Sequence record: PP359570
DNA from: Escherichia phage ALITA
Length of the DNA stretch: 64,000 nucleotides
Strand: one strand, 5' to 3'
The translations under genes and the position numbers were made by a program. Below, piece after piece: positions 33,574 to 43,066 of the stretch (within the stretch, counting starts at the first letter, position 1; every line of letters begins with the position of its first letter). The notes beneath the pieces were generated by a model. It was not told where the DNA came from and made no database searches. It was given only the letters and a program-made list of their open reading frames with translations.

Positions 33574-33894
33574 TTAACAAGTAATATTGGGAGTAACAAT
33601 TGGATTAACAATTGGAGTGATAGGGTACGTAAACCAAGGGCTTCCAATTTCCCAAGGATTATAAGGTCTACGAGGATCAAATGGAGGAGTTACTTCAGGC
33701 TTTTTCCAAATCTCCGCTAGTTGTTTCTTCCATTTATCCCTTGCTGTCTCATTATCTTCATCCAACTGTTCATCATTATCTTTTATTTCTGGTTTTGGAA
33801 ATAAAAGCTCTTTGACTAACTCAACATCTTCCGTCTCAATAGTAGTTTCTTTCGTAAGTTCTCCTACTGTTTCTTTAATTGTGATTTTATACAT
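33574..33894 (-). CDS. hypothetical protein (106 aa)
   Basis: ORF-track ORF; Pro/Trp-rich C-terminal half. Confidence 0.45.
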   Translation of the reverse strand: MYKITIKETVGELTKETTIETEDVELVKELLFPKPEIKDNDEQLDEDNETARDKWKKQLAEIWKKPEVTPPFDPRRPYNPWEIGSPWFTYPITPIVNPIVTPNITC

Positions 33895-34640
33895 TAGTCC
33901 TCCTCTAAAGTAGAATAAAATTGTAACGTATTTGAATCATCAAAATATGCAAAGGTTAAATTACCATTGAAGCAAGATCCTGTGTCCATATATACCCTAT
34001 TACTGCTAATCATAGGTTTAGGAACATAAGAATGCCCGTGAAATACATAATCTACTCCTGAAACCCTAGGAAGAAGAATCCCTTCAAGTGCGCAATCTAT
34101 CATATCACGATCCCACATTAAAGATTCTGTGAATCGAGAAACTTGCTCTTTATTCATATTCAAACAAAATGGCAAAACTTCTGTCACTGGTAAATGTTCC
34201 AAAACTGAAGGATACCCACCGTGAATAAAGCCTAGTTTCATATTACGATAATTGACAACAAGTACAACAGGTAAATCTTCTAGCATCAAAGCAAGAGCAG
34301 TTGCACCCTCTTCTCCACACTCGTCTAGAACTGTATGGCCTCCGTTCTGAAACCAACATTCGTAATATCGTCTATCACCTTCTAGCAACCCTTTAATCAT
34401 CATATCTTCATGGTTCCCACGAATACCATAACGATTTAGCTTTCTGGTGAATTCAACAACACAACGAAAATTCTGCTTGCCGCGATCTGTAAGATCTCCT
34501 AAAGATACAACAACATCTTGATCTCGGATACCTAAAGTATTAACACCTTTCTGGTACAAATCAAAGCAACCATGTAAATCACCAATAATAAACAGGTCTT
34601 GATCATCTTTTACACTAATTTCTTGATATACTAGCATCAA
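33894..34640 (-). CDS. PPP-family Ser/Thr protein phosphatase (lambda-phosphatase-like)
   Basis: GDLHG, GDLTDRG and GNHE signature motifs in order. Confidence 0.8.
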   Translation of the reverse strand: MMLVYQEISVKDDQDLFIIGDLHGCFDLYQKGVNTLGIRDQDVVVSLGDLTDRGKQNFRCVVEFTRKLNRYGIRGNHEDMMIKGLLEGDRRYYECWFQNGGHTVLDECGEEGATALALMLEDLPVVLVVNYRNMKLGFIHGGYPSVLEHLPVTEVLPFCLNMNKEQVSRFTESLMWDRDMIDCALEGILLPRVSGVDYVFHGHSYVPKPMISSNRVYMDTGSCFNGNLTFAYFDDSNTLQFYSTLEED

Positions 34641-34973: not shown

Positions 34974-35546
34974 TTAATGTGTTAATGAAACTGCGTAACT
35001 AAACACAGGTTCAGATATTACATCGGCTACAGTAATAAAAACGTCTTCGTCTTGAGTTGTTTCTACACGACATACAGTTACACCATTCACCACGAATTCA
35101 ACGCAATGTGGAATATCTTCACAAACGAAGGTAGTGTAAGTAACACCCAAAGCATCATACAAAGATTTAACAGTGTTTGCAAGTGCCGCAGTTTCTTCTT
35201 TTTCTGAGACAATGAATGCTGTAACAACAAGATTGTTTGCATAGTTTAGACTGTCCTCTATAGCCAATGATTTACAAGGTAGTAATGCAAAATATTTACC
35301 TGGTTTAATCAGACCTGCTTCCCATTGATTCAAAATTGCTTGGGATGGTTTAGTAATATAAAACAGATTTTCACTTGGGTTATCAATATTACTTCTGGCG
35401 ATACAACGTGAAGGATTATTAATATCAAACACATGATCAAAATCTACACAAACTGGTAAACTGAAAGGTGTGAATTTTTTACCTAATAATCCTACTGCTG
35501 ACAATATGTTTGCTGTGCTTATCTTCCCGTTAAAAGCTAAACGCAT
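34974..35546 (-). CDS. hypothetical protein (190 aa)
   Basis: ORF-track ORF. Confidence 0.5.
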   Translation of the reverse strand: MRLAFNGKISTANILSAVGLLGKKFTPFSLPVCVDFDHVFDINNPSRCIARSNIDNPSENLFYITKPSQAILNQWEAGLIKPGKYFALLPCKSLAIEDSLNYANNLVVTAFIVSEKEETAALANTVKSLYDALGVTYTTFVCEDIPHCVEFVVNGVTVCRVETTQDEDVFITVADVISEPVFSYAVSLTH

Positions 35547-35770: not shown

Positions 35771-36433
35771 TTATTTAATATTCAATTTTGCACAAAGACG
35801 TTGTACCGCTTTGGCATCGAACAAACTCCCACGAATAGTTCTCTTTCCTGATTCATTCAGATGTTTTGCAATCGTCATATATGGCGTTTTACAAGCTCTG
35901 TATGCAACTAAAGAATCTTTTAAAGAAAGCGCAAACTCTTTTGAGCGTTTTGCTTCTTCCGTTTTCGTATAATCTGTTCTTTTGTATTTAGGGTTTGCTG
36001 CACCAAGAAGCGTTCCCTTCGCTTTTGCTACTTTAAGGCTCTTCTTAACACGATCAGATATTGCACGAGCCTCTTCTTCTGCCAGAACTGCTAAAATATT
36101 TATTATCATATTTTCAGCGGAGGGCATAGTTGCTATTCGTACATTAATCATCTCTAACAAGGTTGCAACAGAAGCTGTGTTACGTCCAAGACGGTCAACC
36201 TTAGCAACAACAAGTGTAGCACCTGTTTCTTTGCAAAGATTAACAGCTTTTACAAGCTCTCTACGTTGCTTCCAATCGCCTTTACCCGAATAAAACTCTG
36301 CAAAGCTACCTACAATAGTATAATTTTCTTGTGAATCCAGGAAGCGTTGGATATCTGCTTCCTGTGATTCTATACCATACTGGTTGCCTTGTTGTTTCTT
36401 CTTAGAAAGTCGATGATACAGTACAAACTTCAT
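35771..36433 (-). CDS. serine recombinase (resolvase/invertase family)
   Basis: N-terminal YHRLSKKKQ (Y.R.S...Q catalytic-Ser context), VVAKVDRLGRN, C-terminal HTH-like tail. Confidence 0.75.
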   Translation of the reverse strand: MKFVLYHRLSKKKQQGNQYGIESQEADIQRFLDSQENYTIVGSFAEFYSGKGDWKQRRELVKAVNLCKETGATLVVAKVDRLGRNTASVATLLEMINVRIATMPSAENMIINILAVLAEEEARAISDRVKKSLKVAKAKGTLLGAANPKYKRTDYTKTEEAKRSKEFALSLKDSLVAYRACKTPYMTIAKHLNESGKRTIRGSLFDAKAVQRLCAKLNIK

Positions 36434-37876: not shown

Positions 37877-37900
37877 ATAAACCCCCTCAAGGGGGTTTGT
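37877..37900 (-). terminator. GC hairpin downstream of HslV-like gene
   Basis: aaaccccctcaagggggttt; approx. Confidence 0.45.
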
Positions 37901-37906
37901 GTTAGA

Positions 37907-38560
37907 TTAATTATCAGAGGATACTTTATCAAGTTTTTCAGAGACTGTCAATACTTTTTCTTGTGATTCTTTCATTTCTGCTAAAATACTTTCAGCTTCA
38001 TCACTATCAGGATCACCAGTCAACAGCATACTAATTAGTTGCTCCTTGCTGAAGTTCAGAATATCTTCCGCTGTTAGCTCCAGTTGTTCTTCGATCTCTT
38101 CAACAAAAGTTTCACCCCCTGAAAAAGCATCTCGTAGTTTTGCAACTTCCATTGCTTCTTCTGGGGTTGCCCCAGCGTCTAAAGCTGCTAAAGCAAAATC
38201 TGCCCCACTACCAACAGCATAGTAATCTTCAGTTAAAGGATATGCTCGCGTTGGATTATTACCCTCGTGCATATAAATTTTACCGTCTGGGTGAACAACC
38301 AATGCCACAAACTCTTCATCTTCTTTATCAGGATCGGACTGGATCACCAAACCTGGGATTGTCTCTTGTGCTGCTTGGCATTGTAAGTTTTGTTCGAACC
38401 AAGAAAAGAAAGTCAGGATAGAAGACAGACGTCCTGCACCACCAACAAGGTAGTCCCCAATTTTACGCACTTTCTTGAAATTTAAAGTGTCTACACGACT
38501 ACCTACTGTTACTTTACCGTCAGACAGAATTTTGTTACGTGTTGCAATAATTGTTGTCAT
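37907..38560 (-). CDS. HslV-like Ntn-hydrolase (proteasome beta-type) peptidase with acidic C-terminal extension
   Basis: MTTIIATRN (Thr right after Met), KKVRKIGDYLVGGAG, YYAVGSGADFALAALDAG parallel E. coli HslV MTTIVSVRR / KKVRRL..AGFAG / AIGSGG.YAQAAA; extra ~50 aa D/E-rich tail. Confidence 0.6.
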   Translation of the reverse strand: MTTIIATRNKILSDGKVTVGSRVDTLNFKKVRKIGDYLVGGAGRLSSILTFFSWFEQNLQCQAAQETIPGLVIQSDPDKEDEEFVALVVHPDGKIYMHEGNNPTRAYPLTEDYYAVGSGADFALAALDAGATPEEAMEVAKLRDAFSGGETFVEEIEEQLELTAEDILNFSKEQLISMLLTGDPDSDEAESILAEMKESQEKVLTVSEKLDKVSSDN

Positions 38561-39051
38561 TGTACTTCCTCCTGTAGTGTTTTAAGGACTGCTTTACCAC
38601 CGCTTACATATTTACGGAGGTAATCAATAGCTCTTAGTGTTTCTTTATCCACAAGAATTTTATTAGTTCTTGTTAGTGGATGATTTAGTAAATCACTGCA
38701 ATTTCTTACTAACATAGATTTCTTGTGAAAAATACTGCTAAGAAAAAGAAGTTTAGAATCTTCTTCATCAATCAGGAGTAATTCTGAATTAGACCCAGCT
38801 ACATTTATTATACACTCAAACAAGCCTTCTTGACTATCAGATAATTCCTGGTAATATTTAGTTAGCCAATCCTCGCCTTTTAACCAACTAAAAAACATCT
38901 GAACTTTTTGTAAAGTTGTCATGTTCTCTAAACGAAGAGATATTTCTTTTTCAATCTTGTCAATATAAATCTGTCTAAACTCATTCGGCTTAACTAAGCC
39001 AGCTTGATAGCATTCATCAATACCATTGCGATCAATCTCAATTAGCGTCAT
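38557..39051 (-). CDS. hypothetical protein (164 aa)
   Basis: ORF-track ORF; 4-nt overlap with HslV-like start. Confidence 0.5.
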   Translation of the reverse strand: MTLIEIDRNGIDECYQAGLVKPNEFRQIYIDKIEKEISLRLENMTTLQKVQMFFSWLKGEDWLTKYYQELSDSQEGLFECIINVAGSNSELLLIDEEDSKLLFLSSIFHKKSMLVRNCSDLLNHPLTRTNKILVDKETLRAIDYLRKYVSGGKAVLKTLQEEVQ

Positions 39052-39087: not shown

Positions 39088-39840
39088 TTAGTATACTTCC
39101 GTGATGAACTGAGACAAACGGGAACGTTGGTTATCAGCAGTTGTCATTTCAACATAACCAATAAAATCCACAATAGCTTCCCTTTCTCCTTCTTCATTAA
39201 TAGGAACAACACGATCTAACAAATCACCTAACCCGTTAGCTCTTCGTTTAATTGCATATGTTTGATTAACATCGCCCATAATGACAATACGTGTATTAAG
39301 ACCTGCTCGCTCAAGGAGAAGTTTTACTGTATTTGGTGACATAAGTTGAACTTCATCAATAAGAATAATGCTGTTATCCCACGTAGCACCTAGTGCATAG
39401 TTTGGAATATTAAGTTCAATTTTGCCACTTGCAATATCGTTTTCCAATTTATTTGCAGTCATAAACTGTTGGAAAATTCTTTTAGTTGATTCGTAGTGTG
39501 CTGCTAGTTTATCAGTCTTATCTCCAGATAAGAAACCAATTTGATCATCACCTACTTCTGTCGGGTTTTTAAGGAAAATCAACTTTCTGAAGTCACCAGC
39601 TTTAAGCATTTGCAATGCTTTCCATAGTGCTGTTGTCGTTTTTCCTGTTCCTGCTGGGGCATTAACAATGGTTAAATCATTCCAAACCATGCTTCTTACA
39701 ATAGCTTCTTGATTCCCAACAGGGGTAAATTCATCAAGACGGTAATCATCATTTCCTACTGCTTTAGCCGCATAACGACTGGCACGTTTGTCATCATTGG
39801 CTGCTGATTGACGACGAGCCTTTGCGGTTTTATTTCCCAT
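39088..39840 (-). CDS. phoH: PhoH-like ATPase
   Basis: Walker A PAGTGKTT, LIFLKNPTE...GFLSGDK, Walker B ILIDEVQ. Confidence 0.85.
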   Translation of the reverse strand: MGNKTAKARRQSAANDDKRASRYAAKAVGNDDYRLDEFTPVGNQEAIVRSMVWNDLTIVNAPAGTGKTTTALWKALQMLKAGDFRKLIFLKNPTEVGDDQIGFLSGDKTDKLAAHYESTKRIFQQFMTANKLENDIASGKIELNIPNYALGATWDNSIILIDEVQLMSPNTVKLLLERAGLNTRIVIMGDVNQTYAIKRRANGLGDLLDRVVPINEEGEREAIVDFIGYVEMTTADNQRSRLSQFITEVY

Positions 39841-40539: not shown

Positions 40540-40806
40540 TTACTCCGCAATCTGAGCCATGAATTCACGTAGTTCAGAAAAACCTCCTACGTGGGTTAGC
40601 TGTTCACCATCTTCCACAAAAATCTGAGGAAATGTACGTGGTAGAACACCTGTTTTCTCTAAGACCAGATTCTGAATCTGATCTAAAGAATAGTCTTCAT
40701 CTAAGGTAAGGTATTTAAAATCCTGTTCACGCTGTTCTAGTAGAATCTTAGCGTTAGTGCAGAAAGGACAATTTGGTTTACCGTAGATAATAAAATTCAT
40801 TTTCAC
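40540..40806 (-). CDS. nrdC: glutaredoxin (NrdC-like)
   Basis: IIYGKPNCPFCTNAK (CPFC active site) and C-terminal HVGGFSELREF parallel T4 NrdC. Confidence 0.8.
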   Translation of the reverse strand: MKMNFIIYGKPNCPFCTNAKILLEQREQDFKYLTLDEDYSLDQIQNLVLEKTGVLPRTFPQIFVEDGEQLTHVGGFSELREFMAQIAE

Positions 40807-41633
40807 TCCTTGTTTAAAAGTATAGTTAAAGTTCTTACAATACCGCTATCAACACTTCGCGGATTTAAAGTAGGATCTGTTTTTAAATAAGATGTTGCTG
40901 GTCTGACTGCTTTGGAGTTATAGGTTGAAGCAGACACAGGATTAACTGTAACCGATAAATCTATAACAAGAAATATCTTACGTGCAAAGTCATACCAAGA
41001 AATATAATCTGCACCTGCATAGTGTACAATTTTACTATTTACACCATCTTTTACAAGTTTAAAAATTGTTTCTGCAAGATCAGGTGCATAAGTAGGACAC
41101 GACAAATGATCACATACTACATTAAATTCTTTTTGACCACCGTTGTAGCGTTCCAACATAGTTTTCAAAAAGTTATGTCCAAATTCACTATAAACAGAAG
41201 CTGTTCTGATAATAAGTGCTGTAGGACAAACTGTTTGTACTAAAGTTTCACCTAATTGTTTACTATAACCGTAGGTGTTCAAGGGGTTTGTTTTACTATC
41301 TTCTGTACCAGCAACATGCCCATCAAAAACATAGTCTGTTGAAATATGTACAAACTGTATCAGTAAATCATTACATGCTTTGGCAATGTTTGTTGCACCG
41401 TATGCATTAACATTTATACAGGTGTTAACATCTTCTTCAGCTTTATCTACTGCCGTGTAAGCCGCACAATTCACAACAACATCAGGCACATGCTGTACAA
41501 GATTATTCATAACATCTTTAAAGTTGGTAATGTCTACATCACTTGCTTCAATCAAAATAACATCTTCGGGCGCAACTTTTGCCAAAGACTGTCCTAATTG
41601 ACCTTTTGAACCAAAGATTAAAAATTTTGTCAA
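40803..41633 (-). CDS. rmlD: dTDP-4-dehydrorhamnose reductase
   Basis: MTKFLIFGSKGQLGQSL nucleotide-binding start, SDR-like STDYVFDG; last gene of rml operon. Confidence 0.8.
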   Translation of the reverse strand: MTKFLIFGSKGQLGQSLAKVAPEDVILIEASDVDITNFKDVMNNLVQHVPDVVVNCAAYTAVDKAEEDVNTCINVNAYGATNIAKACNDLLIQFVHISTDYVFDGHVAGTEDSKTNPLNTYGYSKQLGETLVQTVCPTALIIRTASVYSEFGHNFLKTMLERYNGGQKEFNVVCDHLSCPTYAPDLAETIFKLVKDGVNSKIVHYAGADYISWYDFARKIFLVIDLSVTVNPVSASTYNSKAVRPATSYLKTDPTLNPRSVDSGIVRTLTILLNKE

Positions 41634-42184
41634 AGTATGATCTCCTTTAGTGTTTTTGCTTCCTGATCTTTTTGTGACAAGATAGGTTTAAAATTAATAT
41701 CATTAAAGATTAAATCAAAACCCCAATCTATATTGATATCTGGATCATTCCACGCAAGACTACACTCTGAAGTCGGATCGTAATATTCTGTACACTTATA
41801 TTCAAAATCAGCAATATCGCTAATCACAACAAAGCCATGAGCGAAACCAGGAGGAATCCAAAATTGTGTTTTATTCTTTTCAGATAAGAGAACACCTACC
41901 CATTCTCCAAATGTTGGACTACCAACTCTAATATCTACAGCAACATCATAAACTTCACCACGAACACAACGTACTAACTTCCCTTGTGGGTTTTTCTTTT
42001 GAAAATGAAGCCCACGTAGAACTCCTCGGATAGAACGTGAATGGTTATCTTGGACAAAGTTTTGTTTACCTATGTATTGATCATATAAAGCCTGATTAAA
42101 ACTTTCTAAGAAAAAACCACGTTCATCTCCGTAAACGTCAGGTTGAATGATCAACAAATCTTCGATTTTTGTTGCTTGAATCAT
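41630..42184 (-). CDS. rmlC: dTDP-4-dehydrorhamnose 3,5-epimerase
   Basis: RGFFLESF...GVLRGLHFQ...VRCVRGEVYDVAVDIR cupin blocks. Confidence 0.85.
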   Translation of the reverse strand: MIQATKIEDLLIIQPDVYGDERGFFLESFNQALYDQYIGKQNFVQDNHSRSIRGVLRGLHFQKKNPQGKLVRCVRGEVYDVAVDIRVGSPTFGEWVGVLLSEKNKTQFWIPPGFAHGFVVISDIADFEYKCTEYYDPTSECSLAWNDPDINIDWGFDLIFNDINFKPILSQKDQEAKTLKEIIL

Positions 42185-42196
42185 TTAATCTCCCCT

Positions 42197-43066
42197 TTAT
42201 TTTAATTTAAGTAAATACTTGCCGTAGTCTGTTTTACTTAAAACCTCTCCAGAACTTTTTACGGAATCTAAAGTAATCCATTCATTTTTAAAAGCAATCT
42301 CTTCTAGACATGCAACCTTCATACCTTGTTGCTTTTCTATTGCATGAACAAATTGAGATGCTTCCATAAGACTTTCATGTGTTCCTGTATCCAGCCAAGT
42401 GAAACCTCTTCCTAGCTTACAGACACGTAAAGCCTTTTCTTTCCAGTACATCTCATTTATATCTGTGATCTCTAACTCCCCTCTAGCAGAAGGCTTAACG
42501 CTTTTAGCTTTCTGTATAACAGAATTATCGTAAAAGTACAAGCCTGTAATTGCATAGTTGCTTTTTGGTGCTTTTGGTTTTTCTTCAATACTTACCACTG
42601 TACCTTCAGAATCAAACTCAACAACACCAAATCTTTCAGGATCATTTACGTGATACCCAAAAATATTAGCTCCACCATTCTTTTCAATATGTTCTCTAGC
42701 AGAATCTAAAATGCTACCAAAACTCTGACCAAAGAATAAATTATCACCTAGAACAAGTGCTACAGAATCTTCACCAATAAAGCTCTCACCAATAATAAAC
42801 GCTTCTGCTAAACCTTTTGGGCTGTCCTGTATTGCATACTGTAGGGAAACACCAAAAGAAGAACCATCACCTAGAAGATTTACAAAATTAATTTGATCTT
42901 CTGGTGTTGTAATTATTAGTATTTCCCTAATTCCAGAAAGCATTAGGACAGAGAGTGGATAATAAATCATAGGTTTATCGTAAATTGGTAATAGTTGTTT
43001 ACTAACCCCTTTAGTAACTGGGTAAAGTCTTGTTCCACTACCACCCGCTAAGATAATACCTTTCAT
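42197..43066 (-). CDS. rmlA: glucose-1-phosphate thymidylyltransferase
   Basis: [18 protein letters not shown]...[17 protein letters not shown] signature. Confidence 0.9.

Follow-up and report, generated by a model that had tools for sequence, protein, structure and literature searches.

Among the homologues of proteasome subunits, two groups have been described computationally (Fuchs, Alva and Lupas 2021, PMC8665760): PPH, a protein of approximately 140 residues that occurs both in phages and in phage hosts, and RPC, a relative of PPH with a C-terminal extension. With the exception of connectase, all other groups were reported to retain both helices of the first pair, of which PPH and RPC lack H2 (PMC8665760). 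BPH is a descendant of HslV that has lost its dependence on HslU (PMC5777263), and HslV itself accepts the C-terminal tails of HslU in pockets to which Phe54 and Phe57 of helix H1, Ala79 and Lys80 of helix H2, and Gln114 contribute (PMC6429459). In the present study, we analyzed the gene gp058 in a stretch of 64,000 nucleotides of Escherichia phage ALITA (sequence record PP359570; hereafter, the window), and found that its product belongs to the phage-specific PPH/RPC branch and is not an orthologue of HslV. The window represents a phi92-like myovirus of E. coli (Justusliebigvirus), and over the 3.5 kb surrounding the gene, more than 50 Justusliebigvirus genomes, phi92 among them, showed 98.5-99.5% identity to it. 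The gene corresponds to Phi92_gp058, which carries the RefSeq label 'peptidase HslV family' and was labeled 'putative 20S proteasome' in the original record. The gene had already been annotated and the family already described, and the finding is thus a correct re-discovery that does not introduce a new kind of system.

Regarding the fold, gp058 matched the protein family phrog_1040 (PHROG 1040) at an E value of 8e-62, exceeded the cut-off of the Pfam Proteasome model PF00227 (25.1 bits; cut-off, 22.4), and was similar to HslV chains in the PDB at an E value of 5e-8 as a single sequence and of 1.9e-12 with the family profile. An AlphaFold2 (AF2) monomer model, for which 20 homologues served as the input, had a mean predicted local distance difference test score (pLDDT) of 80 with a confident core. 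When this model was compared with the PDB using Foldseek, the top 50 matches were all HslV, BPH, or 20S beta subunits (E 7e-10 to 8e-8), led by HslV at an E value of approximately 1e-9, and the template modeling (TM) scores of the top matches were 0.66-0.70 relative to the target. Matches of this strength are well beyond the level of chance. The predicted structure accordingly shows the fold of a proteasome beta subunit or HslV, namely, the alpha-beta-beta-alpha fold of N-terminal nucleophile (Ntn) hydrolases (MEROPS T1), in agreement with the assignment proposed in an initial annotation made from the letters of the sequence. That annotation had also listed, with no strand given, an open reading frame (ORF) that starts with MTTIIATRN and contains KKVRK, GGAG, and a third conserved block; the frame was found on the minus strand with an AGGAGG ribosome-binding site 5' of the gene, and all of the blocks were present (K29-K30-V-R-K33, G40-G-A-G43, and G117-S-G-A-D-F-A-L-A-A-L-D-A-G130).

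The designation 'HslV-like' used in the initial annotation is correct at the level of the superfamily, as indicated by the Foldseek and PF00227 matches, and wrong at the level of the family. The protein scored far below the cut-offs of both NCBIfam equivalog models for HslV, NF003964 (34.0 bits; cut-off, 137) and TIGR03692 (31.6 bits; cut-off, 157.75), and a tblastn search of 50,697 phage records with E. coli HslV at E <= 1e-3 returned host-like hslVU fragments only and no phi92-like gene. The features by which PPH and RPC were delineated are present in gp058, which has no propeptide and lacks H2 while retaining H1, H3, H4, and the catalytic set. In the model, a lone helix H1 (residues 45-65) is followed by an acidic loop in coil conformation (residues 66-84) at the place where HslV has H2, and the other helices span residues 120-128 and 133-143; of 225 family members, 89% had a net acidic loop. 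When scored with the profile of the gp058 family, PPH-like representatives of approximately 140 amino acids reached 80-95 bits and true HslV 40-50 bits, and, reciprocally, a 142-amino-acid PPH representative matched phi92 gp058 along the entire core with 37.6% identity. When 1.84 billion cluster representatives were searched exhaustively with a profile, there were 57 relatives at E <= 1e-30, 1,362 at E <= 1e-10, and 7,090 at E <= 1e-3, and nearly all of 150 relatives among the matches listed started with MTT. The placement of gp058 in the PPH/RPC branch rests on the published description and on profile scores, independently of the authors' own sequences WP_042125023.1 for PPH and WP_140207863 for RPC, and is compatible with gp058 being an RPC, a tailed PPH, or a member of a sister clade.

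Similar to PPH and RPC, gp058 is phage-borne, starts with Met-Thr-Thr without a propeptide, has the full catalytic set, and has no H2. It differs from PPH proper, which consists of a core of approximately 140 amino acids without a tail, in carrying a C-terminal tail, and it shares with RPC an extension at the C terminus, the fold of which is unknown in RPC. RPC was, however, reported only from proteobacterial genomes, whereas the long-tailed clade of gp058 lives in large virulent myoviruses. This clade comprised 166 cultured phage records, representing large myoviruses of Escherichia, Klebsiella, Vibrio, Aeromonas, Shewanella, and others, and was essentially absent from 185,579 bacterial and archaeal genomes (one per species), among which one 425-nt contig matched; this distribution marks the long-tailed clade as a gene of virulent phages, unlike RPC. 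HslV provided the closest solved structures and sequences, and gp058 was 28% identical to E. coli HslV, with which it shares the Met-Thr-Thr start and an active site composed of Thr1, Asp17, Lys33, Gly, and Ser-Gly. In contrast to HslV, gp058 has no H2, an acidic loop in place of the basic pore cluster, an additional tail of approximately 60 amino acids, and no hslU gene. BPH resembles gp058 in the absence of a partner ATPase, an acidic pore region, the lack of a propeptide, and the conservation of active-site residues; unlike gp058, it is cellular, retains H2, assembles into heptameric double rings, and carries no tail at the C terminus. BPH chains were among the top fold matches of gp058, their sequence similarity was weaker than that of HslV, and BPH was absent from the matches of the gp058 family profile at E <= 0.01. 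A literature search for biochemical or genetic studies of any PPH found no experimental work, and only the bioinformatic description of 2021.

The conservation of the active site was counted among 145 representatives with mutual identity of 50% or less, which were new from the exhaustive profile search and were aligned with E. coli HslV and 82 close homologues. The nucleophile T2 was found in 135 of 137 sequences, D14 in 139, K30 in 142, and the oxyanion residue G43 in 143; the serine of the GSG motif was conserved in 127 (and replaced by threonine in 16), D144 in 137, and S147 in 90 (threonine in 46). As the proteasome-type network is retained in full throughout the family, these counts argue for an active enzyme and against a scaffold, and gp058 is, judging from its intact active-site network, most likely a catalytically competent N-terminal-threonine peptidase. 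Methionine aminopeptidase strips methionine ahead of small residues; because the gp058 ORF begins with Met-Thr, propeptide processing should be unnecessary, and removal of Met1 by the host enzyme would free the threonine nucleophile.

The relationship with an unfoldase was evaluated from both genomic and structural viewpoints. A tblastn search of the entire 64-kb window with E. coli HslU gave no match at a threshold as permissive as E <= 10, which bears out the earlier statement that no HslU gene lies next to gp058. Among Escherichia phage records, only 4 were matched by E. coli HslU, and 106 contained a homologue of gp058. Due to the missing H2, the side of the HslU-tail pocket that Ala79 and Lys80 form in HslV is absent from the gp058 model. 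The basic pore cluster Arg86/Arg89/Lys90 of HslV, which is important for activity and is remodeled by HslU (PMC5777263), aligns with K79/E82/E83 of gp058, and the same basic-to-acidic change has been described in BPH (PMC5777263). In the neighborhoods of short PPH genes, which were grouped into 25 non-redundant viral contig groups, no gene family occurred in more than 4 of the 25 and none was an ATPase, and in phage DSL-LC04 the PPH gene stands alone beside an HNH endonuclease gene. Taken together, the loss of H2, the acidic loop, and the lack of a neighboring unfoldase favor the view that gp058 does not use HslU in the way that HslV does. As a separate observation, HslU-like ATPases that are 33-43% identical to the E. 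coli protein are encoded by jumbo phages of Erwinia and Salmonella, such as Ea35-70, Caitlin, and SPAsTU.

The C-terminal tail is the second feature that sets gp058 apart from HslV. Residues 156-217 contain 17 acidic (D/E) and 5 basic (K/R) residues, and residues 166-217, which correspond to the acidic extension of approximately 50 amino acids recognized in the initial annotation, contain 13 and 5 (25% D/E); the whole protein has a net charge of -22 and a pI of 4.3. At least 30 residues follow the core in 142 of 227 family members, and 136 of these 142 tails were net acidic (median D/E, 25%; K/R, 8%), with tail lengths among relatives ranging from 0 to 220 amino acids. The proximal part is conserved: 70 diverse tailed members shared a consensus that consists of an acidic run, L-T-(R/K)-E, and (S/T)-K-E-E-L-L-x-h-L-F-(G/P), in which E173 and L175 were nearly invariant in alignment A1, and the model placed helices at residues 164-169 and 172-181 (pLDDT 61-73). 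The distal part (residues 183-217) diverged rapidly, with identities to gp058 of 0.23, 0.09, and 0.07 in three tiers of divergence in which the core retained 0.85, 0.64, and 0.37. A search of the PDB with the proximal motif gave no match, the best being the extended homology region of MafG at an E value of 0.36. In related structures, the C terminus is directed away from the ring (PMC8665760), and a conserved proximal part, a swappable distal part, and an outward terminus are together what would be expected of a recruitment or regulatory module. The regulatory role that the initial annotation suggested for the tail is in keeping with the conserved proximal sequence motif.

Many of the long variants (for example, L002 4001-4831, L003 4001-4723, P0126, P0128, and P0133) share another C-terminal motif of approximately 40 amino acids, …L(A/C)DxLG(V/I)KYAHNIGxEKLxxK…, which resembles SAP/HeH/Rho_N-type modules and is missing from phi92 gp058. 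Pfam Rho_N matched this motif in one protein at an E value of 0.39, and a comparison of its profile with the PDB gave designed-repeat artefacts only.

The gene upstream of gp058, gp059, encodes the 164-amino-acid protein with which gp058 had been considered to be co-operonic, and the 4-nt ATGA overlap between the two genes is in line with that proposal. A member of the gp059 family adjoined the PPH gene in all 20 loci in which the family occurs, across PPH identities of 41-100%, at distances of -4, -1, +9, or +37 nt; one nominal distance of -50 nt is an artefact of ORF-start calling. The AF2 model of gp059 was all-helical and confident (pLDDT 93.7), and had no recognizable fold relative in the PDB. 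Two ideas on its homology were considered and rejected. A degenerate HslV paralogue, for which the cues were MTLIEIDRNG, FFSW at the same offset, and SGG near the end, was ruled out by a BLAST E value of 0.11, an hhalign probability of 0.08%, and the all-helical model. The ORFs in the same position upstream of PPH in Vibrio and Aeromonas phages were rejected as remote homologues (hhalign, 0.13%). With both ideas rejected, gp059 is a candidate for a lineage-specific partner.

A gene for a PhoH-like P-loop ATPase, gp060, lies immediately upstream of gp059. All 27 loci of the long subfamily contained PhoH within 6 kb of PPH and in the same orientation, whereas PhoH was near PPH in only 1 of 37 loci with a short PPH (loci with PhoH near PPH: L002-L007, L010-L029, and L058). 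This synteny held at PPH identities of approximately 35%, at which PhoH itself barely matched (E 1e-8 to 1e-11). PhoH directly adjoins PPH in Shewanella phage 1/40, and was kept in L029 despite a rearranged gene order. L058 is the sole locus with PhoH and a short PPH, the genes of which overlap by 20 nt. Since lysozyme, glutaredoxin, and ribonucleotide reductase genes are syntenic as well, inherited gene order is the simpler explanation, and the proximity of PhoH and PPH is probably inherited synteny, although it could be a clue to what phage PhoH does. The context of P0082, a 1-kb contig, was uninformative.

The explanation that we favor, and to which we give an even chance, is that gp058 is a stand-alone PPH-type threonine peptidase, in which the acidic tail element recruits other proteins or gates the enzyme and gp059 is a lineage-specific partner. 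The gp058 subunits would form HslV-like rings and, by analogy with BPH or Anbu, operate without an HslU-type unfoldase. The conserved proximal tail motif, which would point off the ring, may recruit substrates or partners or gate the enzyme, the fast-evolving distal tail may tune its specificity, and gp059 may serve as an adaptor, an inhibitor, or a substrate. Several points weigh against this explanation. Ring assembly, peptidase activity, and independence from an unfoldase are what we infer for gp058; standard peptidase assays detected no activity of the related, stand-alone BPH (PMC5777263), and an active peptidase is therefore not guaranteed. Model confidence was low over the tail (pLDDT 53-73), and gp059 was restricted to Stephanstirmvirinae-like phages and is thus no general partner for the PPH family. 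In addition, the H1 side of the pocket is still hydrophobic, with L49 and F52 of gp058 in place of F54 and F57 of HslV, and the cultured hosts of the long subfamily are without exception gammaproteobacteria and possess HslUV, which makes the use of host HslU conceivable. The last two points speak for the idea, raised in the initial annotation, that gp058 rings dock on host HslU or a ClpX-type AAA+ unfoldase and redirect ATP-dependent proteolysis in infection, as do the position of HslV as the closest solved relative and the lack of a phage-encoded unfoldase in the HslU tblastn searches of the window and the Escherichia phage records. The idea was not refuted, but found no support and appears unlikely to us: the H2 helix with its pocket residues is missing, the basic cluster that responds to HslU is reversed in charge, and gp058 scored far below the HslV equivalog thresholds. 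Table 1 of the 2021 study puts PPH in Actinobacteria, in which HslV is unlisted, although the text of that paper is inconsistent on this point (PMC8665760), and a Keio screen of a V5-like phage made no mention of hslU, hslV, clpX, or lon, which is weak evidence as the carriage of PPH by that phage was unchecked. We similarly doubt that gp058 is a specific Ntn enzyme with few targets, such as a connectase-like ligase or transpeptidase, a site-specific processing enzyme, or an amidase, which acts as a monomer or small oligomer. Connectase, a monomeric ligase, is a member of the superfamily, and a number of homologues were predicted to be incompatible with stacked rings (PMC8665760); the inertness of BPH, a possible effect of the H2 loss and the added tail on assembly, and the tight pairing of gp058 and gp059, which would suit a dedicated substrate or cofactor, also fit such an enzyme. 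However, the entire proteasome-type network, including the equivalents of Ser129, Asp166, and Ser169, is kept, the S3-S4 insertion of connectase is missing and replaced by a plain beta-hairpin in the gp058 model, and the nearest relatives in sequence are ring-forming HslVs.

The remaining explanations have lower probabilities. A machine in which gp060 is the nucleotide-dependent partner of gp058 and gp059 is the adaptor would account for the proximity of PhoH in all long-subfamily loci, divergent, adjacent, and rearranged cases included, and for the 20-nt overlap in L058, but we consider it very improbable: PhoH was not nearby in 36 of 37 short-PPH loci, as many as 6 unrelated ORFs separate PhoH from PPH in Aeromonas phages, the pattern is consistent with gene order inherited within one large-myovirus lineage, and PhoH resembles a helicase-type P-loop ATPase, unlike an AAA+ unfoldase. 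We know of no precedent for a peptidase machine coupled to PhoH. A self-contained viral proteolytic device of a new type in the long-tailed clade, consisting of a PPH ring with the tail motif as a built-in activator or gate that replaces the HslU tails and with gp059, PhoH, or both as partners that would supply specificity or energy, is a similarly distant prospect. That gp058 is a protease for virion maturation (prohead protease) is hardly credible; some short PPH genes are located 1-4 kb from terminase-like or portal-like genes, but the position of PPH relative to these genes is inconsistent, gp058 of phi92-like phages is situated amid nucleotide-metabolism genes and far from structural genes, and the 2026 paper on the virion structure of phi92 is silent on gp58 and on any protease.

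To our knowledge, virus-encoded proteasome homologues have been catalogued and never characterized, and the benefit that a phage derives from its own threonine peptidase is not known. As phi92 is well studied and easily grown and the active site of gp058 is intact, this protein offers convenient access to the family. Identification of its substrates could show what large lytic phages change in the host or phage proteome, and its mode of action, whether alone or with host HslU, gp059, or PhoH, would inform on how proteasome-like enzymes shed unfoldases. A device powered by PhoH, if true, would be the first ATP-dependent protease based on a PhoH-type ATPase and provide the first function for phage PhoH. 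New in the present study are the conservation of catalytic residues over 145 representatives, the acidic loop in place of the basic pore cluster, the proximal tail motif, the coupling of gp059 together with its confident helical model, and the synteny of PhoH in 27 long-form loci.

Table 1. Positions of gp058, its parts, and neighboring features in the window
Feature	Position	Strand	Description
gp058	37907..38560	minus	PPH-type proteasome homologue (Ntn threonine peptidase) gene, 217 aa, stop codon included
gp058 catalytic core	38096..38560	minus	residues 1-155
gp058 active-site positions (proteasome equivalents)			T2 (Thr1), D14 (Asp17), K30 (Lys33), G43 (Gly47), S118 (Ser129), D144 (Asp166), S147 (Ser169)
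Proximal tail	38015..38095	minus	residues 156-182, acidic linker and two-helix motif ELTAEDILNFSKEQLISMLL
Distal tail	37910..38014	minus	residues 183-217, variable, acidic; modeled helix 188-216, pLDDT 53-66
Terminator-like hairpin	37882..37894	minus	CCCCTTGAGGGGG then TTTATT, 12 nt past the gp058 stop; consensus scan, pattern match only
gp059	38557..39051	minus	164-aa all-helical protein; stop overlaps the gp058 start by 4 nt (ATGA)
gp060	39088..39840	minus	PhoH-like P-loop ATPase, next gene upstream, PF02562 E 1.4e-35
RmlD-like gene	40803..41633	minus	
RmlC-like gene	41630..42184	minus	
RmlA-like gene	42197..43066	minus	
Ser/Thr phosphatase gene	33894..34640	minus	NinI-like
190-aa ORF	34974..35546	minus	RefSeq label 'histidyl tRNA synthetase'
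Serine recombinase / DNA invertase gene	35771..36433	minus	

In phi92-like phages, gp058 is surrounded by genes for ribonucleotide reductase, glutaredoxin, PhoH, and a methyltransferase, with the structural genes far off, and is thus located in a block of nucleotide-metabolism genes outside the virion block. The PADLOC library of defense systems gave no match for gp057, gp058, or gp059. Further upstream in the window, the RmlA-, RmlC-, and RmlD-like genes listed in Table 1 represent a phage-encoded pathway of the dTDP-rhamnose type; RmlB is annotated next in phi92, and the rhamnose-type genes adjoin those for glutaredoxin and ribonucleotide reductase. The same leftward block also contains the NinI-like phosphatase gene, the 190-amino-acid ORF, and the serine recombinase gene.

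Two further observations concern other phage records. Aeromonas phage 4L372XY carries two tandem phrog_1040 genes (L004 3429-3980 and 3998-4825); the first copy, of 183 amino acids, retains Thr1, Asp, and Lys, has GYTTS in place of GxAG and GCG in place of GSG, lacks the D..SGG block, and may represent an alpha-like subunit that has degenerated and takes part in a mixed ring. Four records labeled 'Campylobacter phage' with C. jejuni as the host (MG065639, MG065645, MG065656, and MG065689) were 98.5% identical to phi92 in this region and look like mislabeled or contaminating coliphages.

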